From Amphiscolops sp. MND2022 (Eukaryota), in contig OZ076409.1 in assembly GCA_964187785.1 (NCBI GenBank), forward strand, positions 46,502,001-46,566,000: a DNA stretch of 64,000 nt, in the 5' to 3' direction. The translations under genes and the position numbers were made by a program. Shown piece by piece: positions 10,932 to 55,623 of the stretch (position 1 is its first letter; each line of letters starts with the position of its first letter). The notes beneath the pieces were generated by a model. That model was not told the DNA's origin, did no database searches, and worked only from the letters and a program-made list of their open reading frames with translations.

Positions 10932-11131
10932 NNNNNNNNNNNNNNNNNNNNNNNNNNNNNNNNNNNNNNNNNNNNNNNNNNNNNNNNNNNNNNNNNNNNN
11001 NNNNNNNNNNNNNNNNNNNNNNNNNNNNNNNNNNNNNNNNNNNNNNNNNNNNNNNNNNNNNNNNNNNNNNNNNNNNNNNNNNNNNNNNNNNNNNNNNNNN
11101 NNNNNNNNNNNNNNNNNNNNNNNNNNNNNNN
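10932..11131. other. Assembly gap (200 N)
   Basis: Run of N. Confidence 1.
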
Positions 11132-28200: not shown

Positions 28201-30195
28201 GGAGGGAGTACTGTTTTGGGCCCTTCAGAACCACAAAACACCCGGCAACAGAGATTTCACCAAACATGCTCCAGCATGGAGCCGAAATGTCAACTCCGCT
28301 CTTTCAAATAACCTGAGTTCACCTGAATTCGTTTCTGGAGAGGAATTTATAGAGCACTTAGCCAGACAGTAGGAAACTCTTGATCTTGTTCGTAGGAACA
28401 CGCACAAAGCACAATTGGGGCAGAAACTGAAGTTCGCCAAACACTTGGAAGCAAGACAATACCATGTGGGCTTTCTGTCATATTCTACAAATAGGTGGTA
28501 ATCGCAAACCTATATACGCTTGGCGTGGACCTCATATTGTAACGGACGTATTGGTAACGTCTCAGTTCTCGGGAAAGTCATGTGAGCGACCACCTCTTGA
28601 AAATTTTTTTACAGAAATGAAGTGAATGAATAGAAAGAAATTCTGATTAAACTGATCTTTGTCGCTCAAATGGCTGGCGACGAAACGTCAGTGCCCCTAT
28701 AAATGTAGTTATTAGTATTGGTAAAAACTAGTGTGATTTTTAGGTTAGCCTAATTGTTGTAAGTATGCTTCGGATGATTGCTCATCAAATAGAAACTTCA
28801 AGCAAGTAGTGTTTTCCTCACGAGACACAACCCTAACGGTTCAAGTACCTGCAAGATGACATCGCTCGCACAACTTTTGATGTCACACATTCAAGTACCT
28901 GCCTGAGCGATGCAGCACACTTTTCTTAAAACCGCATATTTTGTTAACTGACTGGTACCTGTTGCGGAGCTGTAAATAACCGATGCTGAACCACTTCTAC
29001 CATCAATTTTTCTTGTGAATACATACACCAAGTCTTATTATACCAAAATAATCTCAATTCAGTTCTTCATTCCTACCCAGCATTGAATAAGGTATGACTG
29101 GTGTAAAAACGTAGAGGAGTTTTTTGTCAGTTTTTCGAAACAGTGAAAGACTAAGCATTGTTTACTAAAGTTTTCTTGCAGTCTGTTTCTGCTAAAAAAT
29201 TAATCTGGCAGGTTTTGAGGTTTCGGCCGAAATTATAAATGCAGTTCAAGCGGAATTAGCGCCATCGTAATCGCAGACAACCAAAGAGCAGAAGACTTCC
29301 TACTGGGTAACGTTCGTACAAACGTACAACGTTCTCGTAGAATTGACTGCAGTGCCATGAGAGTCATCATAAGAGACCTAAGAACACAAAGGTTCTCGAA
29401 CGAATTGCACGGTGTCAAGTAGCAGGAAGCATCCATTGTGGTTTCGTCTCAGGAAGCAATCTTAGGAGATTTTCGTGCATACAACGATACGGGACCAAAA
29501 AAACACAAAGAGTTCCACTTCCGCAACGTGATGATGCATCCTTACGGCGCACGAATTGACTCCCATTTAATTTAGAAGACACGCTAACATTAGTCGGAGA
29601 GGTGGGAGTAGTGTTCTTGGCCCTTCAGAACCAAATTTAAAGTGACAGGGTACAAGTTAAAACACAAACAGTGAAAGATTAAGCAATGTTTACTAAATTT
29701 TTCTTGCAGTCTGTTTCTTCTAAAAAATTAATCTGGCAGGTTTTGAGGTTTCGGCCGAAATTATAAATGCAATGCAGGCGGATATAGCGTCATCGTAATC
29801 GGCGACAACCAAGGAGCAGAAGATTTCCTACTGGGTAATGTTTGTACAAACGTACAACGTTCTCGTGGACTTTACAGCACTGCCATGAGAGTCACCATTG
29901 GAGACCTAAAAACACAAAGGTTCTTCAACGCGGTGCACGGGGTCAAGCGACAGGAAGCATCTCTTGTGGTTTCGTCTGAGGAAGAAGTTTTACATTCTCT
30001 CGTGCATACAACGATACGGGACAAAAAAGAAAAGAAGTTCCACTTCCGCAACGTGATGATGCATCCTTACGGCGCACAAATTGACTCCCCGTTTGTTTTA
30101 GAAGACACACTAACATCAGTCGGAGAGGAGGGAGTACTGTTTTTGGCCCTTCAGAACCAAGTTTGAAGTGACAGGGTACAAGTGAAAACACCAAC
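25300..30195 (+). repeat. ~1926 bp tandem duplication (about 2.5 copies), each with two ~490 bp protease-region subrepeats plus the element's 3' segment
   Basis: Near-identical ORFs are offset by 1926-1927 bp (25380/27307/29233; 26299/28225). Segment 26308-27215 recurs at 28234-29140 and 33119-34030. Confidence 0.92.
26778..26901 (+). repeat. Old diverged copy of the 145 bp Gypsy LTR (also ~28703-28826 and ~33589-33712)
   Basis: gcctaattgttgtaagtatgcttcggatgattgctcatcaaatagaaacttcatgcaagtagtgttttcctcacgagaca aligns with the reverse complement of 44131-44275. Confidence 0.75.
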
Positions 30196-33100
30196 AGTGA
30201 AAGGTAAAGCGGTGCTTACTAAATATTTGTAGCAATATGTTTCCTAAAAAAACAATCTGGCAGGTACTGAGATTTCGGCCGAAAACATAAATACAGTGTG
30301 ACCGGAAGTAGATCTAGAAACAATTTCTGAATCAAGTTGCCTTTTCTAAAAACTTCTTTTGAGTAAAGAAGTGTCAGAAGAAGGTTGGTCGGCAAAAGAG
30401 GTACAGATACTCATTTGCGGAAAACATTTCCAGGACCCGACACCTCATCACTCTCTTTTGGGGGTAGGAAACGACTGAAAACTAGCGAGCTTTTTGAGTG
30501 AATACGAAGACTTGTCCTTAAAAAACAAATCCGGAAAAGGGCTATTCAAAGTAGTGAACCACAGGATAGAATGGAACCAGAGGCTGTACAACACCGCGAA
30601 AGAGTAGGACGAACATTCCAAATATGGCGTTAAAAGCTGATAAGGAAGTGCCGATTTTCCTAGCTCTAGGTAGGGTACAACTTTCCTACTCGCTGTGGGC
30701 TGGTGGGATAGTCATGGTTAAGAAAAAACCGGTGAGCTTCGCTTTTGCTGTGACTTCCGAAGGCTAATGGACGTGACGCTGAACGAGGCTTTTCCGCTTT
30801 CTAGGATAGACGGAAACCCCTTTAGAATAGGAAAGGCAAAAGTATTCACTAGCCTTGCCTAAGCGTGGGCCTTCTGAAAGACACCGCTGAAGATGCGTGA
30901 TCGAAGAAAGATCTCATTCGCGTATGAGCTAGGCTTGTTCGAACGGCGACACATGCCTTTCGAGCTTTCCAATGCATTAGTCGTTTTCTAGAGGTTAATC
31001 ACTTCAGCACTACAAAGCATTCAACAGCGACATGAAAGTGACGTGATGGCGGCGTAGATCGATAAAGTAATCATTGCACCCAGACGGTTGAGAATCATCG
31101 AATAAGCATGAGCGACATTTCCGAGTGTCGCAGAGAGGCAGGTTTCAAGCTTCGTGCCCAGAAAAGCATTTTTGTGCGCACTGTAACCAAGTACCGAGGA
31201 CAAGTATTTTCGACAGAAAGCACAAGCCTGACGCAGAAGCAGTTAGAAAAATCCTTTAATTGCACCTTGGCGTCATGAAAAAAAAACTCGGTAGTAGTTT
31301 GCAATATTTCCTCGTGTTCGGTATCTGCTCCTGCGACTACCGATACTTTATCTCTTTTCATGCCGCCAAGGTGAATACAATGCAAGAGCTGCAATGAAAA
31401 ACCAACTTTTCTACTGCATAGAAAAACACCAAGGCTCATTTGATTCAGAGTAACAAGAGTAATCTTATGCCACAGCGTTAACAGCGCCAAACGAGTAAGG
31501 ACCTTTTGTGTTACACATAGATGCTAGTGCAGTCGCAGAAGCTGGAAATCTGCATTGAAATACAATGGAAAATCTATTTTGCGACCTAACGTTTACGAGA
31601 GCAAATCTGCAACGCAAACACAACTGAACTACGGTGCCTCGAAACTAGAATTCACTGCGTCTTGTATTTGCGTCTTCTAAAAGTCTTCCACTTCATCAAA
31701 AAACTTCCCTCATACCTTGCAGGTCAAGAACTCACGCTTCGAATAGCACATCTCAAACAGTACCACTTCACGGCAATTCACAGACCCCGCGCTTAACATC
31801 AAAACGCAGACGGCCTTAGTAAGAAGACGAACGATTACCCGCTCCGAGAAAAGATCATTGAGCAAGGGATTCAGTTTCATGTACCAGAACGAAAACAAAA
31901 ACCTCTCAATCGTACCGTACACAGATAAACATGGGAGGTTGATACCAGATCATCCCGAACTTCCGATTACCAGTGCTGTATATTCGAGAGCAACTGCCAG
32001 TGCTTTACATTGTGCGAGAGAAACCATACAAGATCCGACACCAGCTCAGCTTTTGGATACTACGCCGTGGTTCCCGGAAGACAAATGGGGAACAACCCCA
32101 ACAACAGGTGAGTACAATAGGCCAAATTGCATCCTGACAACAAAGGTGCGACCGGCAAGTGTAGACTCAACCAAACGCAATCTAAAGCTACGTAGATTGC
32201 CCAGAACAAGCTGACGTTCTTACGCTTGTAAGCACCCAGCTACAAGACTATCAATCGACCATGCGCGGCCTGAAAGACCTACAGGTACTTCAAAACAGAG
32301 ACGTACAATATCTAGCATGCAAAAAGCTGAGGAGCAAGACACCACTGAGTGACGCCTTGTTTCTTCAGGACGTGCAAGACTTTGCAAAATGGTACTACAA
32401 CCAGCAGAAAGAACTACTCTTTTTGAACCCAGATGACTTTCTGTGCGTCAACTACGTCTCTCAAACCGAGCATTGCACGTGAGACCGTGGATGATTGTTA
32501 TGCCACAGTTACACCAACATGAGATCTCGTACAGTGGCATAATGAGTCCGGATATCAGGGATTAGGAAAAGTGTTACCAAGCATACACGAGAAGCACGAG
32601 AAGAAGTAGTAGTGCATCAAGTGAACCGTAGTTAATCACATCTAACAACGTTTAACATGTCAATAAACAAAGTATCCCTCTGGGAACGGCCGCAGAGCAT
32701 CAACTGCAGCATCTTCAACAGATTAGTACAGTTTGATTACTCAGAGTTTTGAAAAATCATGTCAGGGAACTAAGAATGGCTAGCCATAATCGATCACTTC
32801 ATGTTTACAGAAACAATTTCGTGTGCTCATAAGGAATAGGGCGTCCAGGCAATATCTAAGATAATTCTGAACAATTAGTTTGCCAGGAAGGGCACTCCCC
32901 CTAGAATGCAGTTAGTCAATGCAACCAACTTCACAGCAGAAATTGCACAAAAACTCGTGAAAGCTTCACAAGTCACTAAAGTAACAGGTCACACAAGATG
33001 TATTGGCCTAGTAAAACAACAAAACCGGCCATTACTCACACTGGTTAAAGTTAACCCCCCTCGCAGGATGCACGATTCGGACGATCATGATGACGGAGTC

Positions 33101-34124
33101 TTGGTGTACACAATTCCACAAAACACCCGGCAACAGAGATTTCACCAAACATGCTCCAGCATGGAGCCGAAATGTCAACTCCGCTCTTTCAAATAACCTG
33201 AGTTCACCTGAATTCGTTTCTGGAGAGGAATTTATAGAGCACTTAGCCAGACAGTAGGAAACTCATGATCTTGTTCGTAGGAACACGCACAAAGCACAAT
33301 TGGGGCAGAAACTGAAGTTCGGCAAACACTCGGAAGCAAGACAATACCATGTGGGCTTTCTGTCATATTCTACAAATAGGTGGTAATCGCAAACCTATAT
33401 ACGCTTGGCGTGGACCTCACATTGTAACGGACGTATTGGTAACGTCCTAGTTCTCGGGAACGTCATGTGAGCGACCACCTCTTGAAAATTTTTTTACAGA
33501 AATGAAGTGAATGAATAGAAAGAAATTCTGATTAAACTGATCTTTGTCGCTCAAATAGCTGGCGACGAAACGTCAGTGCCCCTATAAATGTAGTTATTAG
33601 TATTGGTAAAAACTAGTGTGATTTTTAGGTTAGCCTAATTGTTGTAAGTATGCTTCGGATGATTGCTCATCAAATAGAAACTTCATGCAAGTAGTGTTTT
33701 CCTCACGAGACACAACCCTAACGGTTCAAGTACCTGCAAGATGACATCACTCGCACAACTTTTGATGTCACACATTCAAGTACCTGCCTGAGCGATGCAG
33801 CACACTTTTCTTAAAACCGCATATTTTGTTAACTGACAGGTACCTGTTGCGGAGCTGTAAATTACCGATGCTGAACCACTTCTACCATCAATTTTTCTTG
33901 TGAATACATACACCAAGTCTTATTATACCTAAATAATCTCAATTCAGTTCTTCATTCCTACCCAGCATTGAACTGAGTGTAAGTTATGACTGGTGTAAAA
34001 ACGTAGAGGAGTTTTTTGTCAGTTTTTTGAAAATGAATAAGTCAATTGAACGAACAAAAGCGTTAGGTTTCAATAAATGCATGTAGGATACCATGAGCCT
34101 CCACTTCAGCTGAATGTTTTTGAC

Positions 34125-34324
34125 NNNNNNNNNNNNNNNNNNNNNNNNNNNNNNNNNNNNNNNNNNNNNNNNNNNNNNNNNNNNNNNNNNNNNNNNNNNN
34201 NNNNNNNNNNNNNNNNNNNNNNNNNNNNNNNNNNNNNNNNNNNNNNNNNNNNNNNNNNNNNNNNNNNNNNNNNNNNNNNNNNNNNNNNNNNNNNNNNNNN
34301 NNNNNNNNNNNNNNNNNNNNNNNN
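34125..34324. other. Assembly gap (200 N)
   Basis: Run of N. Confidence 1.
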
Positions 34325-35424
<1,100 letters not shown>

Positions 35425-36601
35425 TGGCTGTTTGGCGCTTTGCCGCCTAGCATAGCGCCAGATTAGCGAATCGCCAGCACTTTTGAAAATTAAGGGGGCA
35501 AATCGCCAACATGTCAACTTAGCATGACTAAATGGTTTCATTCAGCTTAAATTAACTGCAAAACACGTTTAAACAAAATTTCGAATTGAATTTCACCGAA
35601 AATGATGATTTTCCAGATTTTTCTGTAAACTGGCGAATTCTCATAGCATACCGCCAGTTGCGATTGACCTTCTAATCTGCGCCAGTTGCGAAATCATTTT
35701 CGATCAGTATTCTGTTTAATTGGGTCGACCATTGTTTTTCAGCGGTTTTCTGTGGACTTTGTAAAACGGAATAGTTTTATTTTGTCCTTTAACCACTCGG
35801 ATCAGAAGAAATAACGTTCACAAAACCCACGTTGAAAGCCACACATTGATTTTTCTCATATCCAAAAACGCAAAACCCTCTCCATTGAAAATTGAAAAAA
35901 GAATCACCTTTTTCTCGGAACCATTCTCGAGGATTATGGAACGGATGTTTTCTTATTCCCTATCAATGGCAAACATTCACCTGGAAAATTTATATACTCA
36001 TTGATAAAAATAGTATTCGTATTTATTCTTATTATATCATTATAAAATCTGAACATTATATCATTATCAAACTCAAAGCCATCCATGAAGTTACTAATGA
36101 TACCTCTTAATCTTTTGAAGTTATCATAGTTTTGTGAGAAGGAAAAAGCAATGTGTGGCAAAGAAGCTTTTCAATCAATTATGAGATGTGTTTTTCTATT
36201 GGGAAAATGAATTCAGTCCTGAAGTTATTACGTTTAAATTTTAGGTGAGCTCGATCCTCAGAAGTTTGGATGCCATTTGATTAGACGGTTTTGCTGCTAT
36301 CATAAGCACGTTTTCTAACATGAGCGTAATCGGTTTTGAGTTTTTCACCAACCCGAACGTTAGAGACGCACTCATCGTATGTCTCAACTCGTGATGAAAA
36401 CTAGGGAAATGCGAGCATTGCAGATTTCCTTTTGGAACAGAAGAAGCGGAGACAAGTGTCAGAGACTCAAAGAAAACACGGTGAACTTCCAGTGACTGTT
36501 GGAAACATTAACTGGAGTTCAATATTGATCGAGAGACGTAGTGAAAGTGTTCAAGTTTTGATGGATACACTGAACAAGTTTTGCATTTTTTCAGAGTGAA
36601 T

Positions 36602-37195
36602 ATGCGACCGCGAAGAGTCAAAGGTGTTGAAGTGGACCCTTTTAGTTTCGTCGATAAAGATCCAGATTTATTCGAAGTTCGCGATGTTCCTCATGCCGGT
36701 AGAGGACTCTTTGTGAAGCGAGAATTCCACAAGGAGGAGTTTCTTTTAAATTACAGAGGGACCGTAAAGATTGTTGCTTCTGACAACCCCTATGCATTTG
36801 AGACAGGACCGCCAGAAAATTTAGTTGTTGATTCCTCAGAAGATCAAACATGTTTAGCCAGGTTTATCAATGACGTTGATCCATACCATACCAGGAATTG
36901 TGAAGCTCGCAAGACTTATAGCAATGATGGTAAATGGACTATTGCCTTCTTTACGACCACCTCCATCTCGGAGGGCACGGAATTAAGATACAGCTACGGA
37001 ACAAAAGTTGCACCTTGGAGGCAAACGTCATTCTGGACGAAGAAAGCGGGACTTGCTGTGCAAGTTCCTAAGCAGAGAAAGACCACCAAGAGGAAAGTCA
37101 GTGAAGCCCCCCAAAAAAAGTTGGGAAGTCTGTCACTAATGATGAAGCAGAGGGAAGTCGTTGTTTGGAAGTTGTGGCGCCCAACAGAGAGTTAG
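36602..37195 (+). CDS. SET-domain lysine methyltransferase (PR-Set7/SET8-like); probably the N-terminal part of a SET-YR fusion
   Basis: GRGLFVKREF..EEFLLNYRG, VVDS..CLARFIND, NC, IAFF..I..GTELRYSYG. First ATG is at 36602. Confidence 0.9.
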   Translation: MRPRRVKGVEVDPFSFVDKDPDLFEVRDVPHAGRGLFVKREFHKEEFLLNYRGTVKIVASDNPYAFETGPPENLVVDSSEDQTCLARFINDVDPYHTRNCEARKTYSNDGKWTIAFFTTTSISEGTELRYSYGTKVAPWRQTSFWTKKAGLAVQVPKQRKTTKRKVSEAPQKKLGSLSLMMKQREVVVWKLWRPTES

Positions 37196-40100
37196 GGGAG
37201 GGAGTTAAAGTTGTGGGCGGAAGATTACAAGGTGATTCAACTTCGAAGTTGGCTGCTCTTGAGGTGAGTCGAGATTCCACTGGGCCGGAGATGATGAGCG
37301 AATTGGAAGGTGCGTTCCAGTCATTCGTAAACAGCGATAACACACAACTTGCCCTTCAGTTGAATTCGTTTCTGGAAGGAAATAATACGCAAGGTGAACT
37401 TGAAGAACTTTCTAATGTTAGCGATTGTTTGCAAACTGATACTGGAAGGTTGGAAGTTGGAGAACGTTTGAAGACTACTACTGTCGAGAAGGAACGTGTG
37501 AAACCTTGTCTGGAAGTTGGAGAACGTTTAAAGACTACTGTCGGGAAGGAACGTGTGAAACCTTGTTTGGAAGTTGGAGAACGTTTGAAAACTACTACTG
37601 TCGAGAAGGAACGTGTGAAACCTTGTCTGGAAGTTGAAGAACGTTTGAAGACTGCTACTGTCGAGAAGGAACGTGTGAAACCTTGTCTGGAAGTTGGAGA
37701 ACGTTTGAAGACTACTGTCGAGAAGGAACGTGTGAAACCTTGTCTGGAAGTTGGAGAACGTTTGAAGACTACTACTGTCGAGAAGGAACGTGTGAAACCT
37801 TGTCTGGAAGTTGGAGCACGTTTGAAGACTACTGTCGAGAAGGAACGTGTGAAACCTTGTCTGGAAGTTGGAGAACGTTTGAAGACTGCTACTGTCGAGA
37901 AGGAACGTGTGAAACCTTGTCTGGAAGTTGGAGATCGTTTGGAAACTACTACTGTTGGAGGACTTATCGAAACTGCTACGTGTGATTTGGAAGTTGAAAG
38001 TCGTTGTTTGGAAGTTGGCGAACGTTTGGAGACTGCTACTGTTGCGAATGTACTCGTAAATCCTTGTTTGAAAGTTGGAGATCGTTTGGAAACTACTACT
38101 GTTGGAGAACTTATCGAAACTGCTACGTGTGATTTGGAAGTTGAAAGTCGTTGTTTGGAAGTTGGCGAACGTTTGGAGACTGCTACTGTCGAGAATGAAC
38201 TTGTAAACCCAGTTGGGAGTATTCAGAGTTTGGAAGTTGGAGCTCAAGAAGAAGTTGTTTCTCAAGAATTAGCCGCCGAGACACATATGGGTTTGGATCC
38301 AAATGCAAGCATTGAATGGAACATGCAGGGAACTTCCCATCCGCAATATGATGAAAAGGATGATACGAGTGACACCGACTCAAGTGATAGTGATAGTGAC
38401 ACAGAGAGTGAGACTGAAGAACCGAAACTGCGTCCCTTAAAAAGCTACCGGAGCAAACGCCCTTCAGTGGAAAAGTGTCTTCTTTGCGCAAAGGAAGTGC
38501 ATAAAATGAGGGATCATCTCACTAATCTACATAAACTCCCGCAGACTGACCCTATCCGTAAATTTCTTTTATCTTACTACAGCACTATCAAAACTGATAG
38601 GTGCTTTCAGTGCAATGTGTGCAATGTGAGGATGGGTGACAAGCACAGGCACCCAAAAGAACATAATGTGGAAAGAATTGGAGACCGCGAGGACATGAGT
38701 TTGTTTTCTCATAGCATTGTTCTCGCAATTAAGAATTTTCAAAGTGGCCTGCACTTACCAAATTCTCAGTTTGTTGAGGCGTGGATTACTCATCAAAAAG
38801 GATTGTTCTCTGATGGAGATGTTTCAGGACAATGGGACATACCCTCAACTCAAAAAGCTTTTTTGTGTAAAGCAATTCAGGCAACTGCTGGTTTCACAGA
38901 CACATTAGCTTTCGCTGTCTTTGTGAGAGAATATTTCGAAGAAAAACATCTTACTCAAATTACTGTGGTCAATTACATTTGTAGTTTGGAAAAGTTGATC
39001 AAGTATGCCAAGGCGTATAAACCATCCCAGTTTCCTGGACTTGCCGAAGTCGACTGGCTCGTCATATCTAGAGACGTTAAAGCACGTTATCAGAAGGGTT
39101 CGTTGAAAGAAAAACGACGAACGCGCCAGAAGTTATTCGAAAAAGTTCCTGACATGAATCATCTAGCTACAGTGTACTCGAAAATGACTGAATTGTGCAA
39201 TGAAGATGTTTCAAAGAAGTTTCTTAGCTTGGATGAACTCAAGTGTTTCAATTTCATCATTTTATGCTCGAATCTAAACGGTCGTCTTGGTCCAATTAAC
39301 GACTTGACATGGTCTCTTGTGAAAAAGATTAAGAAAGAGGGTCAATTTGATTGTGACAACCACAAAACCGGTCACTACTACGATATTAAACTGAAAATTC
39401 ACAAAGACCAATTTCCTTGGTTAAAAAGACTGAAGGAAGAGTTCAAAAAGAAACACGGTTACGTCGGTGACAGAGTTTTTGGCACCCAGAAGGATAAGAA
39501 AGATCATTCCCTGGCCAACATCGTCAGGAAAGTGATGGCTCAGCACTTTGACAACGAAATTCTCGAGAAGAATTTTAATGGGAATTCGATCCGTAAAACC
39601 TGGGAGACTTATGTGTTTTATAATAAACATAAATTGAGTCAAGAAGAACTAGCATTCCACCAGACACAGAGTGCTCATAGGAAACAGACAGCCGAAGCGC
39701 ATTATGTGAAGCACAGCTCTGAAGTCAGCGACTTCTATCATGACACGATAAAACGTGCCGTTCAAAAATTGAACAGCAGTACTCCTTCAGGATCCAAACT
39801 TTCCTCTTACAGTGAATCTTCGGATATCAATCTTCATTCTGGCACTTCTGTTCAGAAACGACAGAAGACAGTGAAATGGGTTGCTCCCGATGTCCAAAAG
39901 CAATCAACGTTATCAACGGCGAGTCATGACGCTGAACTCACCACTCCCGTCCAAAAACGACGAAGTTACATTGTTACACCAGAAATAAGTTCTACTCCCA
40001 TTCCAGCTGTTGAAAAGAAGAGCAAAGAGAAGACTAAGAAGCCGAAAGAGTCTGCTCCTAAGGAAGAGGTTTCTTCGGATGAGAACAGTCTTTCCTTTAG

Positions 40101-40410
40101 TGAAGAGGACTCAGATGAAGAAATGCCAGTTCCAGCTAAGAAGGCCAGAAAAAAGAACCCAACTTCTAAAGGTCAAGTCAATCGAGAAGCTTTCATAAAA
40201 ACTTTGACCGTTTGGCGGAAGCGAATGCCTTCGAAAGAAGAAACGAAAGCAATGGAATTATTCAGTGGCCTTCATTACAGAATACACAAAGAAGATGCTT
40301 TGCGCAAAATAGAAGAAGCTGGAATCAAACTTTCTGAAGCCTCTAAAAGCATAGTTTATGCAAAACTTAAATGGGCGTGCAATCAACACCTTCCTTCAGC
40401 AAACAAGTAG
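37105..40410 (+). CDS. Tyrosine recombinase protein with N-terminal tandem peptide repeats, acidic tract and C2H2-like zinc fingers
   Basis: Open frame from 37105 to the stop at 40410. Catalytic pattern: R (NGRLGPI, 39283), K (HKTG, 39364), NSIRK (R 39592), QSAH (H 39676), AHY (Y 39703). Fingers CLLC..RDHLTNLH and CNVC..HRHPKEH. Confidence 0.8.
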   Translation, partial: SPPKKVGKSVTNDEAEGSRCLEVVAPNRELGEGVKVVGGRLQGDSTSKLAALEVSRDSTGPEMMSELEGAFQSFVNSDNTQLALQLNSFLEGNNTQGELEELSNVSDCLQTDTGRLEVGERLKTTTVEKERVKPCLEVGERLKTTVGKERVKPCLEVGERLKTTTVEKERVKPCLEVEERLKTATVEKERVKPCLEVGERLKTTVEKERVKPCLEVGERLKTTTVEKERVKPCLEVGARLKTTVEKERVKPCLEVGERLKTATVEKERVKPCLEVGDRLETTTVGGLIETATCDLEVESRCLEVGERLETATVANVLVNPCLKVGDRLETTTVGELIETATCDLEVESRCLEVGERLETATVENELVNPVGSIQSLEVGAQEEVVSQELAAETHMGLDPNASIEWNMQGTSHPQYDEKDDTSDTDSSDSDSDTESETEEPKLRPLKSYRSKRPSVEKCLLCAKEVHKMRDHLTNLHKLPQTDPIRKFLLSYYSTIKTDRCFQCNVCNVRMGDKHRHPKEHNVERIGDREDMSLFSHSIVLAIKNFQSGLHLPNSQFVEAWITHQKGLFSDGDVSGQWDIPSTQKAFLCKAIQATAGFTDTLAFAVFVREYFEEKHLTQITVVNYICSLEKLIKYAKAYKPSQFPGLAEVDWLVISRDVKARYQKGSLKEKRRTRQKLFEKVPDMNHLATVYSKMTELCNEDVSKKFLSLDELKCFNFIILCSNLNGRLGPINDLTWSLVKKIKKEGQFDCDNHKTGHYYDIKLKIHKDQFPWLKRLKEEFKKKHGYVGDRVFGTQKDKKDHSLANIVRKVMAQHFDNEILEKNFNGNSIRKTWETYVFYNKHKLSQEELAFHQTQSAHRKQTAEAHYVKHSSEVSDFYHDTIKRAVQKLNSSTPSGSKLSSYSESSDINLHSGTSVQKRQKTVKWVAPDVQKQSTLSTASHDAELTTPVQKRRSYIVTPEISSTPIPAVEKKSKEKTKKPKESAPKEEVSSDENSLSFSEEDSDEEMPVPAKKARKKNPTSKGQVNREAFIKTLTVWRKRMPSKEETKAMELFSGLHYRIHKEDALRKIEEAGIKLSEASKSIVYAKLKWACNQHLPSANK
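37445..38215 (+). repeat. Coding minisatellite: ~8 x 57-60 bp (CLEVGERLKTTTVEKERVKP) plus 2 x ~132 bp
   Basis: Direct in-frame tandem repeats visible in both DNA and protein. Confidence 0.95.
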
Positions 40411-41239
40411 ATTGATATGTTTGATCCAATTTCCTGCACTTTTCAATATTTTTACTAATAGCCCATACTTCTTTGCTGCAAGGAACTTGGTCCTACGCTT
40501 TTCGTGTTAATGTAACTATTTACTGTGTTACCCTGCTGTTTGAGCTTTTTTTATCACTTGTTATCATGTTAACCTTGTTACCATTTCCATTGTTACCTTG
40601 CTGTTTGAACTTTTATTACTGCATTGTTTCTCATGAATTGTTCATGAATTTTTGTTGGGTTTCTGATGAATTGTTGCTGAATTGTTGTTGAACTGTTGTT
40701 GAATTGTTGTTGTACGCCTGAAACTTCAGGCTGGAATGAAAAAAAGATACAAAAAAAAACAAAAAATACAAACACCTGAAAACTCCCCAGAGTATAAAAA
40801 GATGGAAAACGATCTTGGGGTTGGTTCCACTGTCAAAGAAATTCTCGGAACACATTTCCGTTTTTCACGAGCGAGTACTAGAGGTAGTTCATATTGCAAA
40901 ATCTAACTTCATTTTGTAGATTCATATTGATAACGATCATTGGGATGTTACATTTTCGCAAGGTCAAAATTGATTGATGTTTTTGCAGACATTGCTTTTC
41001 AACATTTTTGGATCAACTCACGCTTTTTTGTTTTTTTTTTACTCGAAAACGTAAACTCATCTCGCTTTGTTTTTTATTCAGAGTACCAATTCCAAAACGC
41101 ATCGGTTAGATTCTGAGTAGACCAAAAAAGGGCCAGTATACTTTCAGTGGAGTTCTTATAAAAATGATTTGAATTTTACTTGAAAAGAATGTGTTTCAGA
41201 TTTTACTGATGATGATTATGAGGAGAGAAGGCTCCATTT

Positions 41240-42170
41240 ATTTTCGCAGCTCCAAACGATCTTCAGTTTCCAGACGACGATTTATAGGGCCCTCAAAGAG
41301 GGCCCCCTCGTGCTGCTCCACAATAATGGATTGTGGACCTAACTACATGTATCGCAGCTCCAAACGATCTTCAACTTCCAGACGACAATTTATAGGGCCC
41401 TCAAAGAGGGCCCCCTCGTGCTGCTCGAACAACATATTTTCAAGTCCTCAAACAACACGTGCTCCTCCAACAACATTTCTTCAACTCCTCCAACAACACC
41501 AACAACACGTGCTCCTCCACACACCGAAGCGATGATGATGCAATTTACAAAAGTCAATTCCAGTGACGTCTATTCCACTAATGAGGGGCTCCTGGTCTAG
41601 AAACTACAAGGTTTATAGGGCCCACGTGCTCCTTCAACAACATTTCTTCTTCAATTCCTCCAACAACTCCACCAACTACACGTGCTCCTACACACAACGA
41701 ATTTCATACCTTCTCGAATTTCGGTTATTATATACGTCACACATGAACTTTGTATAACTGTCTCAGTAATTAGCATAATTTATTTGATGTGAGCGGACTA
41801 ACCGGGGGTTGGTTCACATACTTCTCGAGAAAGTTTATGCATGTTTCAAGGCCACCATCCTCCAATTTATAAAAAGTATTCCAGTGATGTCTATTCCACT
41901 AATAAGGTGCTACTAGTCAACCAATTTCGAGGTGTATAGGGCCCTCAATGAGGGTCCACGTGCGTCTCCATCAACATTCCCCCAACAACGCCTCCAGCAA
42001 CACGTGCTTCTCCACACGACAAAGTTTTGAAATGATTAAAGATGGGCCCTCTGGCGATGACGGGGCCCTTTGTTCATGATGGGCCCTGTGGATGATGATG
42101 AAATTTGCAAAAAAATCCAGTGACGTCTATTCCACTAACAAGGTGCTACTAGTACTACTAATTTCGAGCT
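41240..42170. repeat. Imperfect internal repeats rich in gggccc
   Basis: tcgcagctccaaacgatcttca..gggccctcaaagagggccccctcgtgctgctc occurs twice (41244, 41352). ccagtga(c/t)gtctattccactaa occurs three times (~41560, 41881, 42117). Confidence 0.8.
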
Positions 42171-44297
42171 TCGCAATTCCTGGTATGATAGGGATGACTA
42201 CCAATGAGGGCATTTATCATTGCTGGTGACTTCAACACCAATCGCTTTTGAAATATCAGTTTTGTGACTGCCCAAACAGTTGATACACCACAGCGATCAT
42301 CTAGTAGAATCATCTGTCCTCAATCAACGTGTTGGTCGTCAATCAACGTGTTAGTCAAATTAAAGTTCCAGTCTTTTGAATGAAATTGATGATAAATGCA
42401 TCTCATTGGCTCTAACATGGTATTCTCTAACATGCTGTCGAAACCAATGTTTTACCCACGGGATTAGTTAAACTTTCAGCGACCATTTGAGCATTTCTTT
42501 GAGGGTAAAGGTGGGAGTGAACGGTCCAAGGTCCTCAATTTGTTTGAGCTTGAATTTGGTCGTAAACAGAAAAAATCTAGTAAAGCGTTTTTCTTGAATT
42601 TCAACACGAGACACTAGAGCCATGCCCCGGTTAAACTTTTGCGCCTTGAGCGGGGTGCGGACTTGGACGGTTCCCGTCTTGTTGACAGCATGTTTCAACA
42701 TGTCCAGATGAAGGGAGTTCACTTCAATGCTATGCTTCACAAAATGCCCTTCGGAACATTTTCCTTTTCCCCCACACAAGAGAAAAAGTAAAGAAATATT
42801 GGAAAATAATGCCAAAATGGTTACAATTTACGCAAATTTTTGCAGCCTCAGCAAATTACAGTGCTTTAATTGTTTAAAAGTCAATTAAAAGTTACAAAAG
42901 AACATATTTCAATAGGTAAAAAATTGGTGTTCACCGCGTGTGGGGGGGGGAAGGAAAAAGAGCCTGCCCTTCTATCGTCTTTTGTATAAATTTGCAAACA
43001 CTGTTTCTTTGAAAACTCTAGAGTTAAGGCCACTGAGTGAATCAACTGTTTATTTTTAGAGCAGCGTAAATAAATTTTGTTTTTAACAAAACACCAATTC
43101 TTCTGGGTACAAGTCGTTTTTCGCAATCAAATTGGCGCTCTTTCTTTCTTTTTCACAGGAGACCAAGTCAGGTAGTTCTACTGACTAAATCTTCAAATGA
43201 AGTGAGATCAAAAATATTTGCATCTAATTGGCGCTCTTTTTTCCATGATGATCATGTTTTCTAACAGTTTTTGATTTTATTTGATAATTGGTTATGACTC
43301 AAGCTAGACCCGGAAACCGTTATAGCTGGTATGTCTTGGACAAACTTCATTCACTTTTCTAAACTACAAATGTAATCGGACCCTGCCTTTTTCTTCTTGT
43401 GCTCATTTTCTCCAAAGCAGAGCAATTGTGTCAGTAAAAACTTGCGTTGCATCAATTGCTCTGCTTGGAAAGAAATTACTAATGGTCAACCTACTCTCCC
43501 GAAACATCTCCATCAGCGAATGAACCTTTCTTGTGCCTTAACCAGACTGTAACTAGTTTTGAATGTGCTGTGAGCTTCCTTGAAAAATTTTGGTTGCTAA
43601 AACAAGGCTTGCTGGAAACAAAACAAACGAAGTTTCAAAATCTGAATTTATTATTCAGTATATCTCAAACTTTCAGTTCTTACGTCTTTCATAGGATTTG
43701 TTTGAGTTGCTTTGAATCTGTGTCACCCTCCGCAAAATTTTTTGCTGATTTCACTGCATTATTTATGATTCAACTGATGCTCTTCGTATTTCTCGAATAC
43801 GCCAGTTGCACTTTGTAAAACGCCATTTGCACTTGTTGAAACGCCAGTTGCAGGTTGCAGAAAGCCAGTTGTGACAGGGCTCTCTGCAGAGCGCCATTTT
43901 TCGTTTGAAAATGCGGATTTCGTTTGAACTTTGACTTTTAACGTTTTTTTGCGCTGCCCATGCCCTACCAAATGCAGTCCAAACATTTTAAAAAGCAGTA
44001 GAAGTGTATAATCAATCGTTTTGGCTTTTTTCCCCAACTTTTACTTTAGGTATTGGTTCTGGAGCAGCAGAGCGTCAGCTAGCACAAACAGCAAAGCGCC
44101 ATTAATTAGATGTATTAGTAGTAGTAGTATTGTCGTGGGGAAAACACTACTTGCAGGAAGTTTCTATTCAATAAGCATTCATCTGAAGTATACATACAAC
44201 AGTTAGGTTAACATAAATAACACAACGACATTGTATAACAGTATTGGTAACTACATATATATTACATTCATAACACTCCTTCCCGCTTCGAAAGTCT

Positions 44298-47200
44298 CTA
44301 GTTCATAGCTGACACAAAGTCGCTTAGGTATGTAGGAGGTTTCCTGTTCCTAGCCGAGCGTCGCAAGGTGGGAGCGGGAGAGTCCGGGCTGAATTGAGAT
44401 TCCTTTATTGGTTCCACAGATTTACGTGGTTCACCTTCGGTTCTGATGTCGGGACCCGATGTTCTGATGTCTACATCGGTCTCCTTGTCCTTGTATTGAC
44501 CTGCTGGTTGTGAGGTCGTTCCTTCATTGTCAATATCCGGCGGTCGTCGACAGTAGTCACTTGTAGAAACAGTGTCAGCTCGCCCATCGCCAAAGGAGAC
44601 TCGTGCAAGGTGAGGGGAGATGACTTCGGATATCTGTACAGGCAGAACGGGAGCTTGGTCTTTCGCCCTTACAAATTTCCGGAGGTACGGGGTAGCGTCT
44701 GCTCTGAGACAAGGTGCGCTACTGGAGGGACGGATCAGCGGCTCGCCGCATTTGAAACAGAAGAAGCGATCATGAGGGCTCTCCTTGGTTACGGTATTGA
44801 TAAGTGTCCGAATCGACGAGAGCGCTGATTGTAGGACACTTTCCCAGTCAGTTAGTGGGCGGTTTGTGGAGTGTAGCAGGCTCCGAACTGCTTTCCACAC
44901 AGTTCCGTTGTAGCGCTCGTTTTGGCCATTGCCCTGGGGGTGGTAGGGCGTAGTTTTGGAGGTCGCAACTCCATTTTGGCGGCAGAAGTTTTGGAATTCC
45001 GATGAGACGAACTGTGTGCCCCGGTCAGAATGAATGAACCCAGGTGTTCCGAAGATGGCGAAAAGTGTTGAAAGACACTTGATGACGCTACTAGACGTGA
45101 TGTTCCGGAGAGGGCAGGCGAAGGGAAACCTACTAAACTCATCCACCACTGTGAGAAGGTATTGGTTTTTGTTTCTAGTCATTGGTTTGGGGCCAACAAT
45201 GTCGATTGATAGTCGCTCCCAAGGTTTGGAGGATCGAATAAGATCGCTGCAGGGGGGTCGCAAAAAGCGCGGTTTCCATAGAGCGCACGTTTTGCAGTTT
45301 TCGGTAACCCTTTTCGCCTCATCTAAAGATATTGGGATTTTGTGTCTTTGAATGTATTCGTACAGTCGGGTCACTCCTGGATGCGCAAGAGTTTCGTGTA
45401 GGGTTTTACAGCTGGGCTGTAGGGACGCTAATCGAGACAGGGCGTCAGCTGACACGTTCTGACAACCTCTCTGGTAGCTTATCTCGAAGTTGTATTCCGA
45501 AAGTTCCAGGCGCCAGCGAATCAGTTTGTCATTCTTCACTCTGGAAGAGTTGGGTCCAAATATGAAGGAGAGGGCCTTTTGATCGGTGCGAACTAGAACC
45601 CGTGACGTCCATAACAGGTCTGAGAAACGGCGGAAGCCTTCCAAGATAGCCATACCCTCCCGTTCAACCACCGAGTACGCCATTTCGCTATGTTTAAAAG
45701 TTCTCGAGAAGAAACCGACAGGTTTGTCGTTTTGAGTGAGTGTCGCTCCGATACCGGTCCCGGATGCATCGGTTTGGAGAACGGGAGGCTCGTTTGCCCG
45801 GGGCAGCCAGAGTACGGCAGTGGCAACTTCTTTCTTGAGAGTTGCGATAGCCAGCCGAGAAGCTTGATTGAGCGGAAAGGCCAGTTGTTTCTGTGTTGCG
45901 AGCAGGAGAGCAACCTTATTTGAGTAGTCTGCAATCCACTTTGCGTTGTACGCAAAGAACCCAAGAAGGCGTTTCAACTGTGACGAGTTTTCGGGGATAG
46001 GGAAATCCATCAGTGTCTTAATTTGGCTCAGATCGGGGCGTTTAGAGCCAGCTCCCACGATGTGACCGAGCATTGGTACTGTCTTACAGCCAAAAACGCA
46101 CATAGCTTTGTTCAGTGTCAGACCCTCAATCTCGGCCGCTTTCAATAAGTTCTTCAGATTTTCTTGGTGTTCCTCCTCGGATATGCCTCCGATGATCACA
46201 TCGTCAAGATATGGGTGCGTTCGCTTCAGGTTGTGCCGGCGTACAAAGGCTGTCATTTCTCGTTGAAATGCGGCTACAGCGTTCGTGACGCCAAAGGGAA
46301 GTCTTGTGAACTCAAAAAGTCGTCCGTTCACTTCAAACGCGGTGAATGACATGTCCTTGCGATGGAGGAGGATTTGATGATATGCAGACTTCAAGTCGAT
46401 TTTCGAAAAAGTAGTGTTCTCGGCTGCTTGGTCAAGCAGGTCTTGCATATTTGGAAAGGGGAAGGCGTCTTTGGACGTATGACGAATAATTGTCTGAGAA
46501 TAGTCGATCACCATCCGTGGCTTGGGTCCGTCCCTAACGACAAAGGCTTGAGCCCGCCAGGAAGACGTGGAAACTTGGATTATGCCTTCAGTGAGCATTC
46601 GGTTAACTTCTGACTCCATGAAGGCGACGTCTTGCGGTTTGTGAAGACGCGATTTTGTAGCAATCGGTTTGGCACTATAAACTGTTTTGGAAATTATGGT
46701 CGGAGGGGCAATTTTCATCGCCGGGAACTCCAGTTCCTTGAGCCCGGCAGATATAACCGTCTCTGGTCGATCACCGCCTAATTCCAGTCTCACAGAGTGA
46801 TGTTGTCGGAGAACGTCAAGCCCGAGAATAACATCCGCAACGAGGTGTTTTGCGACAGTGTAGAGAACTTGGTAGGTCTTTTGGTTTACCTCAATATTAG
46901 CTTTAGCGGTGCCTGACGTAATCAGAGAGTCGCCATTTGCCAAGGCAGTGACCTTGTGCTTCGCGCGAACATTCAGGCCATATTTGGCAGCTGTTGAGGC
47001 GCTGATAAAGGAGCCCGTGGATCCGGTATCAATCATTGCTTGAACTTGTTCATTGCTTCCGGCAAATTTGAGGCTGACATTCAGAGTGGCAGGGAATATG
47101 CCAGTACTGCACAAAACGGCGGCAGTCTCGGGTTCATCATCAGATGACTGTTGTAAGACAGCAGCGGTCGATCTACATACCGAAGCCCAGTGTCCTGCTT

Positions 47201-47900
47201 TCGAGCATTTGTGACAAGTGTCCTTTTTGGCTGGGCACTTTGAGCGTGGATGCTGTTTTAGACCGCAGAACTGACAGCGTGGACGAGGCTTGTTCGAATC
47301 CTGTTGGGCAGCGGAGTTGCCGGGCCGATCAGGTTGCCGTCGAGTTGTCTGGGAGAACGGCTTGGTTGCTGCTACAGTTGAAGATTCGGCACTTCTGAAA
47401 GATTTGGAAAAGTCACTGGATAGTTCGATAGCACAAGCAAGCGATATGCAGCTATCAATGTCGGCCTTGGAGTCTTCCAGTTCCAATAGTCTTGCCCGAA
47501 TGTCGTCAGACCTGAGACCTGATATTAAAGCGTCTCGTACTAGATAGTCTTTATGTGCTTGGACGGTCAAGCTGGTGCATTCGCAGTCTTCAACAAGACG
47601 TTTTAGCCTTCCTGAAATTTGTACGATAGATTCGTCGTCCTTTTGACTGGCACTGAGCATTTGATGACGGGCAAAGAGCACTCTCGTGGGCTTCAGAAAC
47701 TGTCTGTCCAATGTTCTCAGGGCGTCTGCAAACGTTGCAGAGCTTTCGAGGAGAGTGAAATAGTCGGCGCCAACAAATGTACGAAGAAAAACTAATTTGT
47801 CAGCATCTTCGGTTTCTTCGGTTGTGCCATTGATGCGTAAGCCGTCCTCGAAACATTTCTTCCGCCGTTTCCATTTCTCGGGAGAAGGATTTGATGACAA
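44298..47900 (-). CDS. Gag-Pol polyprotein (two CCHC knuckles, protease, RT, RNase H, integrase)
   Basis: CQFCG..H....C and CHKCSKAGHWASVC; IDTGS; LPFG and YLDD; TDASG; HPG..C..C; SDRG and GQNER. One uninterrupted 1200 aa frame, but no in-frame AUG upstream of the gag core. Confidence 0.95.
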   Translation of the reverse strand: MSSNPSPEKWKRRKKCFEDGLRINGTTEETEDADKLVFLRTFVGADYFTLLESSATFADALRTLDRQFLKPTRVLFARHQMLSASQKDDESIVQISGRLKRLVEDCECTSLTVQAHKDYLVRDALISGLRSDDIRARLLELEDSKADIDSCISLACAIELSSDFSKSFRSAESSTVAATKPFSQTTRRQPDRPGNSAAQQDSNKPRPRCQFCGLKQHPRSKCPAKKDTCHKCSKAGHWASVCRSTAAVLQQSSDDEPETAAVLCSTGIFPATLNVSLKFAGSNEQVQAMIDTGSTGSFISASTAAKYGLNVRAKHKVTALANGDSLITSGTAKANIEVNQKTYQVLYTVAKHLVADVILGLDVLRQHHSVRLELGGDRPETVISAGLKELEFPAMKIAPPTIISKTVYSAKPIATKSRLHKPQDVAFMESEVNRMLTEGIIQVSTSSWRAQAFVVRDGPKPRMVIDYSQTIIRHTSKDAFPFPNMQDLLDQAAENTTFSKIDLKSAYHQILLHRKDMSFTAFEVNGRLFEFTRLPFGVTNAVAAFQREMTAFVRRHNLKRTHPYLDDVIIGGISEEEHQENLKNLLKAAEIEGLTLNKAMCVFGCKTVPMLGHIVGAGSKRPDLSQIKTLMDFPIPENSSQLKRLLGFFAYNAKWIADYSNKVALLLATQKQLAFPLNQASRLAIATLKKEVATAVLWLPRANEPPVLQTDASGTGIGATLTQNDKPVGFFSRTFKHSEMAYSVVEREGMAILEGFRRFSDLLWTSRVLVRTDQKALSFIFGPNSSRVKNDKLIRWRLELSEYNFEISYQRGCQNVSADALSRLASLQPSCKTLHETLAHPGVTRLYEYIQRHKIPISLDEAKRVTENCKTCALWKPRFLRPPCSDLIRSSKPWERLSIDIVGPKPMTRNKNQYLLTVVDEFSRFPFACPLRNITSSSVIKCLSTLFAIFGTPGFIHSDRGTQFVSSEFQNFCRQNGVATSKTTPYHPQGNGQNERYNGTVWKAVRSLLHSTNRPLTDWESVLQSALSSIRTLINTVTKESPHDRFFCFKCGEPLIRPSSSAPCLRADATPYLRKFVRAKDQAPVLPVQISEVISPHLARVSFGDGRADTVSTSDYCRRPPDIDNEGTTSQPAGQYKDKETDVDIRTSGPDIRTEGEPRKSVEPIKESQFSPDSPAPTLRRSARNRKPPTYLSDFVSAMN

Positions 47901-47957
47901 GTCGGGTGGTTTGAACTTGATGGGCGTCAGAAGAGGGAATACAGCGCATAGACAATT

Positions 47958-48083
47958 GATACGAGGAACTTAAGAAAGTACCGTTGTAGCAGAATCAGGC
48001 GATAGCTACGAGGAACTTAAGGAAGTACCGTAGTAGCGGAATGGTCGATAGCTACGAGGAACTTAAAGAAGTACCGTAGTAGC
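47958..48083. repeat. 3 x ~43-47 bp direct repeat in the Gypsy leader, between the SGNH ORF and gag
   Basis: (gatagc)tacgaggaacttaa(g/a)gaagtaccg(t)agtagc at ~47958, 48001 and 48048. Confidence 0.9.
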
Positions 48084-55490: not shown

Positions 55491-55623
55491 GACTGTGTGA
55501 AATCTTTAGAATATTGACAAAAATCAAATGATTAATTCAATGGTGAATTCAGAAAGGCCACCGACAAAACAAAGTCTAGAGTCCAAACCAAAAACACCAA
55601 AGAATCAAATACAAATGATTACT

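Follow-up and report, generated by a model that had tools for sequence, protein, structure and literature searches.

Locus and question

What kind of locus places a SET histone-methyltransferase domain next to a tyrosine recombinase (YR), and what could a recombinase gain from such a partner? The question is raised by a stretch of 64,000 nucleotides of the Amphiscolops sp. MND2022 genome (assembly GCA_964187785.1, contig OZ076409.1, positions 46,502,001 to 46,566,000, forward strand), hereafter called the window, in which a prediction made from the letters alone (the original prediction) had placed a self-mobilising YR element of the Crypton type. The data presented below indicate that the locus, spanning positions 35417–44117, is almost certainly a transposon, inserted in a (TAG)n microsatellite. 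Overall, the reading that we favour, with somewhat better than even confidence, is that of an autonomous Crypton-type transposon with a fused SET domain, which may methylate nucleosomes at the sites of the element, histone H4 lysine 20 (H4K20) being the leading candidate substrate.

Copies, ends and target site of the element

The span first assigned to the element, 35425..44112, was nearly right, and required only the inclusion of both 6-bp cores. The features of the two ends are the following:

35304..35424, + strand: (TAG)n microsatellite, left portion of the target site (40.3 copies by TRF)
35417..35422, + strand: left 6-bp core GTAGTA, terminal direct repeat and putative crossover region
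35433..35437, + strand: left TGGCG motif, 10 bp interior to the core, candidate recombinase binding site
43799..43871, + strand: subterminal 21-bp repeats with CGCCAG, from repeat scans
44097..44101, + strand: right CGCCA, 10 bp interior to the core and the inverted counterpart of the left TGGCG
44112..44117, + strand: right 6-bp core, GTATTA in the window copy, with a short (TAG)n next to it

Searches of the genome with the two ends, which had been proposed as a check, bore out the expected dispersed copies with common termini in (TAG)n. Specifically, 14 matches were obtained for the left end and 18 for the right, 14 of the latter at 97–100%. The microsatellite precedes 12 of the 13 full left ends, the remaining one being preceded by another copy, and follows 13 of the 14 right ends of family copies; both exceptions belong to a single head-to-tail junction, of which each forms one half. 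The boundaries read (TAG)n-TA followed by the element, and the element followed by G and (TAG)n, so that GTAGTA appears on either side, as it likewise does in the TAG-flanked sister families. The right core is GTAGTA in all 13 other near-identical right ends; the window copy carries the substitution to GTATTA and a further one at the first base interior to the left core.

In addition, the motif [TA]GGC[GA] lies exactly at position 11 from the core in 15 of 17 arms, representing 10 families (background, 0.003 per site), and more CGCCA-like motifs, possibly also bound by the recombinase, follow within ~85 bp after the left TGGCG. No terminal inverted repeat (TIR) was found among the 25 longest inverted pairs, the ends sharing a short symmetric motif only. 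In one sister family, (TTA)n adjoins the right end in 4/4 copies.

Ten other copies, located on C2, C3, C4, C7, C9, C11 (two) and three small contigs, diverge from one another by 0–0.3 substitutions/kb, and the flanks of copies differ wherever flank sequence was reached. Near-identity at ten separate sites therefore indicates very recent movement, with the reservation that the small-contig copies could in principle be haplotype duplicates. The window copy, 24 substitutions/kb (2.4%) away from these young copies, has itself decayed; the family remains active or was so until very recently. The search for empty sites gave a mixed outcome: two copies of one sister family ending in (TAG)n (L057 and L059) form a filled/empty paralogous pair, one with the element inserted and one without, and no allelic empty site was found. 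The candidates for such a site on C1444 and C12 were rejected, both being paralogues.

The locus could also be read as a host gene or domesticated recombinase, or as a recombinase with a SET passenger under no selection. A splice-acceptor-like sequence directly before the ATG and the spliced appearance of some distant relatives lean towards a host gene. The single-copy locus without shared ends that this would imply is refuted by at least 14 copies with sharp common ends and differing flanks, ten of them essentially identical, while a passenger is contradicted by the retention of SET in 22 of 23 families with nonsynonymous change (dN) far below synonymous change (dS). We consider this whole class of explanations very improbable.

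A single SET–repeat–zinc-finger–YR gene

The coding features of the element are listed below:

36602..40410, + strand: SET–repeat–zinc-finger–YR gene, with one frameshift here, ~1,365 aa in intact copies
36656..37036, + strand: SET type 1 (RFINDxDP..NC, ELRYxY, APW), fold nearest SETD8, tied with MLL1
37112..37119, + strand: 1-bp deletion in an A-rich run, a frameshift separating SET from YR, present in 0/13 other aligned copies
37451..38209, + strand: in-frame 57/60-bp and 87/147-bp tandem repeats, LEVGERLKTTTVEKERVKPC-type linker
38476..38664, + strand: two Cys2His2-like zinc-finger motifs
38740..39780, + strand: tyrosine recombinase, core-binding and catalytic domains

The locus had been described as two intact open reading frames (ORFs), one for SET and one for the recombinase. 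These are actually the halves of one ORF, split by the 1-bp deletion at ~37117. Of the 13 other near-complete copies, 12 encode SET and YR in a single uninterrupted frame of 1,304–1,386 codons, and the thirteenth has its frame broken at a different place; a protein of the same SET–YR kind, P0005 (1,365 aa), was found in ENA. The window copy is thus a frameshifted one, from which the fusion protein is probably not made.

The repeat unit of the linker varies from family to family. The C2H2-like fingers are as predicted, with C21, C24, H34 and H39, and C66, C69, H79 and H83, invariant in 5/5 sequences; this region shows weak ROS/MucR similarity in two homologues. Pfam scans of the long ORFs and of the eight small ORFs of the element found no reverse transcriptase (RT), RNase H or DDE transposase, in agreement with the first reading of the locus.

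The tyrosine recombinase

The catalytic residues occupy the predicted places (R 39283, K 39364, N 39583, R 39592, H 39676 and Y 39703), and R, K, R, H and Y are invariant in 15/15 aligned YRs of the family. A structure model of 38740–39780, built from 44 sequences, reached a predicted local distance difference test (pLDDT) score of 92.9. Its best structural matches are all tyrosine recombinases, which supports a YR fold: VIA returned XerH at Z 13.0 (root-mean-square deviation 4.5, 276 aligned), Tn1549 Int at 12.4, lambda Int at 11.6 and Cre variants at ~11, and the best Foldseek match among viral models was nudivirus VLF-1 (E 1.9e-4). Three observations pull in the opposite direction, namely the His-II position, which is Asn, Thr or similar, the Foldseek comparison with the PDB, which gave only E ~0.01, and the PDB sequence searches with YR profiles, which returned no recombinase.

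The Pfam scan of the long ORF gave nothing significant, and Phage_integrase matches, all weak, appeared in 3 of 42 family proteins. The Atlas provided leads only: an unnamed eukaryotic cluster (0.98), Phage_integrase (0.95) and SET clusters (0.95–0.96). Relatives of the YR at 27–51% identity were found in the Logan, ENA and JGI sets. Protein searches returned no named homologue, no relative was confirmed in metagenome or viral contigs, phages gave no match, and a search for the SET region among shorter proteins was positive in 0/45 candidates.

All together, the multiple copies, their common ends in (TAG)n, the YR fold and the open ORF in 12/13 copies sustain the proposal of a self-mobilising Crypton-type YR element.

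Relation to known elements

The element shows the traits of the Crypton superfamily: a YR, no RT, RNase H or DDE gene, 6-bp direct repeats without a long TIR, and dispersed copies. Cryptons carry terminal direct repeats of 4–6 bp, thought to be recombination substrates, and a circular intermediate has been proposed for them; as far as the available text of that source goes, animal CryptonA and CryptonI are reported to have no terminal repeats, which differs from the fixed GTAGTA core found here, and none of CryptonF, CryptonS, CryptonA and CryptonI, likewise described as YR elements with no RT, no long TIR and short terminal direct repeats, is described with a SET domain (Kojima and Jurka 2011, PMC3212892).

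Three of these groups were considered and set aside. Pfam gave no DUF3504 match, as expected of CryptonA, in three window translations and 42 family proteins; Pfam scans found no GCR1_C domain, as in CryptonF; and the ends are GTAGTA rather than the TATGG of CryptonS. A YR retrotransposon of the DIRS or Ngaro kind was also rejected, the element having no RT–RNase H gene.

Some CryptonV families show microsatellite-specific insertion (PMC8869645, citing Kapitonov and Jurka 2012, Repbase Reports 12:2034). CryptonV is likewise a YR-only, microsatellite-targeting DNA transposon, the target here being (TAG)n, and by this analogy, which compares descriptions only, our element appears to work like CryptonV; the CryptonV descriptions, in the available text, mention neither SET nor zinc fingers nor an end structure, unlike what we find here (PMC8869645).

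The Tn916/Tn1549 and lambda-type integrases share the fold (Z 12.4 and 11.6), the excision of a circle through a short core, and flanking and subterminal motifs; they differ in being bacterial, in lacking a chromatin domain and in having only 11–13% identity to the YR of the element. Regarding SET, other transposon superfamilies have been described as having captured it (PMC8869645, PMC12730594), among them the HarbingerS and MuDR transposons of Phytophthora (cited in PMC12730594). These likewise bear a SET histone methyltransferase, but are oomycete DDE elements, whereas here SET is fused in frame to a YR, with two SET types in sister clades. We found no description of a SET–YR Crypton in the literature searched, which did not extend to Repbase Reports, the source for CryptonV. 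Microsatellite-targeting YR transposons and SET capture by transposons are both known, and the SET–YR fusion itself may be recorded in Repbase Reports.

The SET domain and its possible substrate

The expected SET motifs are present (GRGLF at 36698, RFIND at 36860 and ELRYSYG at 36980), with a Pfam SET match at E 6.8e-9. Two SET types occur among the relatives: type 1 (SET1), found in the window family, and type 2 (SET2), found in a sister clade; both sit inside a transposase, unlike SETD8 and Suv4-20. SET1 is compact and without post-SET cysteines, as is SETD8/PR-Set7 (KMT5A); YRG, N, YxY and PW are invariant in 11/11 sequences and GxG is also kept. No PIP-box-like motif was found in the protein of the window family.

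The original prediction had likened this domain to PR-Set7. The part of that label that stands is structural, SETD8 being the top match of the SET1 model by both Foldseek and VIA. Several results weigh against it. The VIA lead of SETD8 over MLL1 amounts to a tie (Z 13.9 vs 13.0), and the model itself is moderate (pLDDT 74, with four of five models at ≤53). Profile searches with SET1 place MLL1 (52 bits) above KMT5A (46), and with the C-terminal half KMT5A is not among the top 60 profile matches. Moreover, the conserved His of the NH motif is Asp in 11/11 SET1 sequences (NDxDP for NHS), which distinguishes SET1 from SETD8. The PR-Set7 identity of the window-family SET is plausible but not established.

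SET2 tells a clearer story. Its match to SUV420H1 (83 bits, E 2e-22; next family 34 bits) and its post-SET zinc cysteines, invariant in 5/5, make it clearly Suv4-20-like (KMT5B/C) at the sequence level, and this independent match in the sister clade points to H4K20 as a better argument than SET1 itself provides.

Between families, the proportion of nonsynonymous differences in SET (pN) is 0.18–0.41 against a saturated synonymous proportion (pS) of 0.77–0.99 in 8/8 valid pairs, two rows with L047 having been dropped for a spurious SET match. SET is part of the element, and purifying selection acts on it. It is very likely functional in some way, and probably an active methyltransferase, and H4K20 may be its substrate, at odds slightly short of even.

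The conserved SET residues bear on the alternative that, in the same transposon, SET1 is non-catalytic and acts as a nucleosome or histone-tail binder aiding the capture of chromatinised (TAG)n. The invariant His-to-Asp change and the fusion to the recombinase fit this proposal, and selection on SET is compatible with it without catalysis; on the other hand, the residues of the S-adenosylmethionine and lysine pockets (GxG, YRG, N, YxY, PW) are kept, and the sister clade retains a canonical Suv4-20 active site and zinc ligands. PRDM9 and similar active PR/SET enzymes likewise lack the NH-motif His. We regard a purely binding SET1 as unlikely. Less probable again is that SET methylates a non-histone protein, be it the recombinase or a factor involved in repair or replication, and thereby times excision and integration. 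SET1 is too diverged for firm assignment, the fusion places the lysine-rich linker and the C-terminus in cis, and PR-Set7 has such targets (PMC5002974); the Suv4-20-type module of the sister clade, however, is close to a nucleosome-specific enzyme.

SET–YR families in this genome

At least 151 matches to the YR domain exist in the genome; the full number may be higher, as scoring covered 150 of 710 candidates. Forty YR loci were picked by hand to favour long frames and varied sequences, and in 39 of them a SET domain precedes YR; counting against a strict association, L082 is without SET and in L047 none was detected in the examined stretch. The 41 full-YR loci fall into 23 families, 13 with SET type 1, nine with type 2 and one with none detected.

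In the YR tree, which omits L050 and L087 (<200 aa) as well as four external proteins, each SET type occupies its own side of a branch with support 99/94. The SET and YR trees conflict: the SET of the window family groups with L057, and its YR with L051 and L053. Approximately unbiased (AU) tests, for groups named only after the data were seen, reject the alternative SET/YR groupings at p 4e-4 to 1e-74. Selection on SET together with this conflict indicates that SET is a selected, exchangeable module. Judging from these sequence comparisons, the SET–YR pairing is old and selected, and SET modules have been swapped between families.

Genome searches gave at least 150 matches for either SET type. 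Fourteen further SET loci were inspected: eight lie beside this YR family, four come from three families whose recombinase-like ORFs are different (one family also with a JmjC ORF), and two have no YR match. The JmjC family, L092 with L105 (C8:13.116-13.136 Mb) and L093, is a multi-copy element with a JmjC ORF (Pfam JmjC_2, E 1e-6) and a split SET; it is possible, from its predicted domains, that it carries a writer plus an eraser on one transposon. The recombinase-like ORF of L092/L105 differs from this YR family (FNKKRDRE, RKYLAT, LGHNLNVHDKYY). More than 20 of the SET type 1 matches listed have the same 168-aa frame as this element. L091 (C2:54.72 Mb) and L094 (C7:41.63 Mb) are SET families with recombinase-like motifs; their SETs group with type 1, a placement that suggests SET sharing across deep YR lineages. 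The recombinase-like proteins of L091, L105 and L094, whose putative YR identity is based on motifs read by eye, gave no alignment to this YR profile and no integrase Pfam match. This second, unalignable SET-carrying YR lineage (L091, L092/L105) may, judging from a motif, be nearer to CryptonV.

Other arrangements were also observed. At C4:35.98-36.01 Mb, a single (TAG)n array holds three families of the superfamily (L058, L057 and L040), one after another in head-to-tail order; such stacking of different families presumably comes about because each (TAG)n array supplies the core. At L096 (C8:20.24 Mb), also multi-copy, a Suv4-20-like SET ORF stands alone: (TAC)n lies downstream of it, and the first 10 kb gave no YR match. 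Copies of the type-2 loci L066, L077, L078, L079 and L080 are alike over nearly the whole 10 kb examined, and several of these loci are near contig ends or clustered.

The 3' tail

The 3.7 kb past the stop codon contain seven inverted fragments of the ORF of the element and no sense fragment, against an average of 0.04 fragments in 100 shuffles. The features of the tail are:

41246..41392, - strand: two inverted fragments of the element's own coding repeat
41456..42200, + strand: tail repeat array, 173-bp unit, with the CAGTGACGTCTATTCC motif and GGGCCC palindromes
42162..42195, - strand: inverted piece of the SET coding region of this element (88% over 34 nt)
42685..43529, - strand: four inverted pieces of the YR coding region of this element, in colinear order (42685–42754, 43118–43177, 43303–43376 and 43497–43529), decayed and with no open frame

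The 173-bp unit is present in more copies in the young subfamily, and the CAGTGACGTCTATTCC motif and the GGGCCC palindromes are common to sister families. Antisense fragments occur in 5 of 22 loci, all close kin, and are absent from the other 17. In 15 of 16 cases the best match is the ORF of the own family, though the way in which the fragments were found biases this count. The fragments show no G:U bias (37 vs 28, p 0.32) and no significant extra conservation (10/346 vs 151/3330, p 0.17). A second, minus-strand gene in the tail was rejected, as stops and frameshifts break the matches, and a guide-RNA or small-RNA array is unsupported, given the 17/22 loci without it, the missing G:U bias and the lack of extra conservation.

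Tails of other families were also surveyed. L047 has a perfect foldback of at least 102 nt at the end of its ORF (6855-7298), and the tails of L053, L054 and L055 hold ~900-bp tandem units of sense fragments from their own leader, SET and YR. The L047 foldback and the sense collages of L053 and L054 indicate that tails simply accumulate self-derived fragments; we read the fragments, from their sequence, as recurrent self-capture, and a self-silencing role of the tail is possible. For window positions 38230-44100 the search for RNA runs listed none, a result that bears on expression in neither direction. Mu killer is reportedly an inverted duplication of transposase sequence that may give rise to silencing double-stranded RNA; the tail fragments differ from it in being short, decayed, located inside an autonomous element and known from sequence alone. 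In addition, the motif TGA(C/A)GTCTATTCCACTA in the tail at 41557-42140 resembles the reverse strand of the repeat end beside the insertion sites of L017 and L023, a short match that could be due to chance.

The tail bears on another proposal, in which an active SET controls transcription of the element, either against silencing or as self-limiting heterochromatin, with the antisense tail as an RNA brake. The seven antisense fragments, the exchange of SET modules between families and the JmjC ORF of another SET family fit this idea, and epigenetic modifiers of transposons have been so interpreted (VANDAL; SET in HarbingerS and MuDR; TET/JBP; PMC12730594). The restriction of the fragments to 5/22 loci, without G:U bias or significant extra conservation, speaks against the brake. 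Suv4-20 marks are mostly repressive, which fits anti-silencing poorly. Transcription control by SET is an improbable role, about on a par with the binding-only one.

A model for movement and the possible role of SET

Returning to the Crypton-type transposon with a fused SET, a mechanism can be drawn from YR biochemistry. The recombinase would bind the TGGCG/CGCCA end motifs; recombination between the two GTAGTA cores would yield a circle with the junction CGCCA-N10-GTAGTA-N10-TGGCG and leave a clean (TAG)n behind; the circle could then integrate at any GTAGTA of another (TAG)n, the microsatellite providing the core homology. By analogy with known recombinases, this circle mechanism is likely. 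The genome contains a single instance of the predicted right-core-left junction, at C6:60511174, in a head-to-tail pair that joins a 1.4-kb internally deleted copy, retaining both ends, to a full copy. Held against the model, this junction is chromosomal and includes 9 extra bp and a second core, and so is no proof of a free circle; free circles are invisible in an assembly.

As a DNA-binding protein, the recombinase would bring the fused SET to the element ends, the circle and the target. There, and this step is less secure, SET would act as a lysine methyltransferase on nucleosomes, most likely at H4K20. The mark at the circle or locus might in turn promote licensing and replication, giving the gain in copies that a cut-and-paste circle route lacks. 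According to PMC5002974, tethered PR-Set7 leads to Mcm2-7 loading, the Orc1 BAH domain reads H4K20me2, and stabilised PR-Set7 causes re-replication; the same source weakens the proposal, since H4K20me2 is present on most nucleosomes and is a poor specificity factor. Replication licensing ranks first among the purposes considered for the mark, and remains, as an analogy, an unlikely one. The fullest version of the proposal is equally doubtful: an undescribed group of YR transposons fusing an H4K20 writer, PR-Set7-like or Suv4-20-like by clade and swapped, that would replicate itself through a chromatin origin recruiting the origin recognition and minichromosome maintenance complexes (ORC/MCM).

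Neighbourhood in the window

Just beyond the right (TAG)n, positions 44298-47969 (- strand) hold a Gypsy-type long terminal repeat (LTR) retrotransposon ORF of 1,223 aa (protease, RT, RNase H and integrase). Inspection by eye places a BEL/Pao-like LTR retrotransposon, with ORFs of some length, at 50292-55505 (- strand). On the left, the flank repeat at 34330-35085 has an inverted 94% copy at 11362-12117; its 3' part, before the (TAG)n, resembles the end of a decayed non-LTR-like element terminating in (TAG)n, the flank ORFs having no Pfam match. A satellite with a ~1,077-bp period occupies 1-10640, ~1.9-kb tandem duplications with a repeated 183-aa ORF lie at 25317-34032, and the assembly has gaps at 10932-11131 and 34125-34324.

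Implications

Crypton transposition has so far been inferred mostly from decayed copies. Ten near-identical full-length copies, with a defined core, end motif and target, make excision, circles and targeting directly testable. Should the proposed mechanism be true, the fusion protein would be a natural (TAG)n-specific integrase that restores the repeat on excision, and a self-written origin would account for the rise in copy number of circle-forming Cryptons, which carry no polymerase. For this genome, these elements inflate the annotated count of SET genes. In conclusion, the conserved SET–YR fusion, with two SET types in sister clades that may both point to the H4K20 pathway, offers a concrete case of a transposon that may write chromatin marks where it is active.

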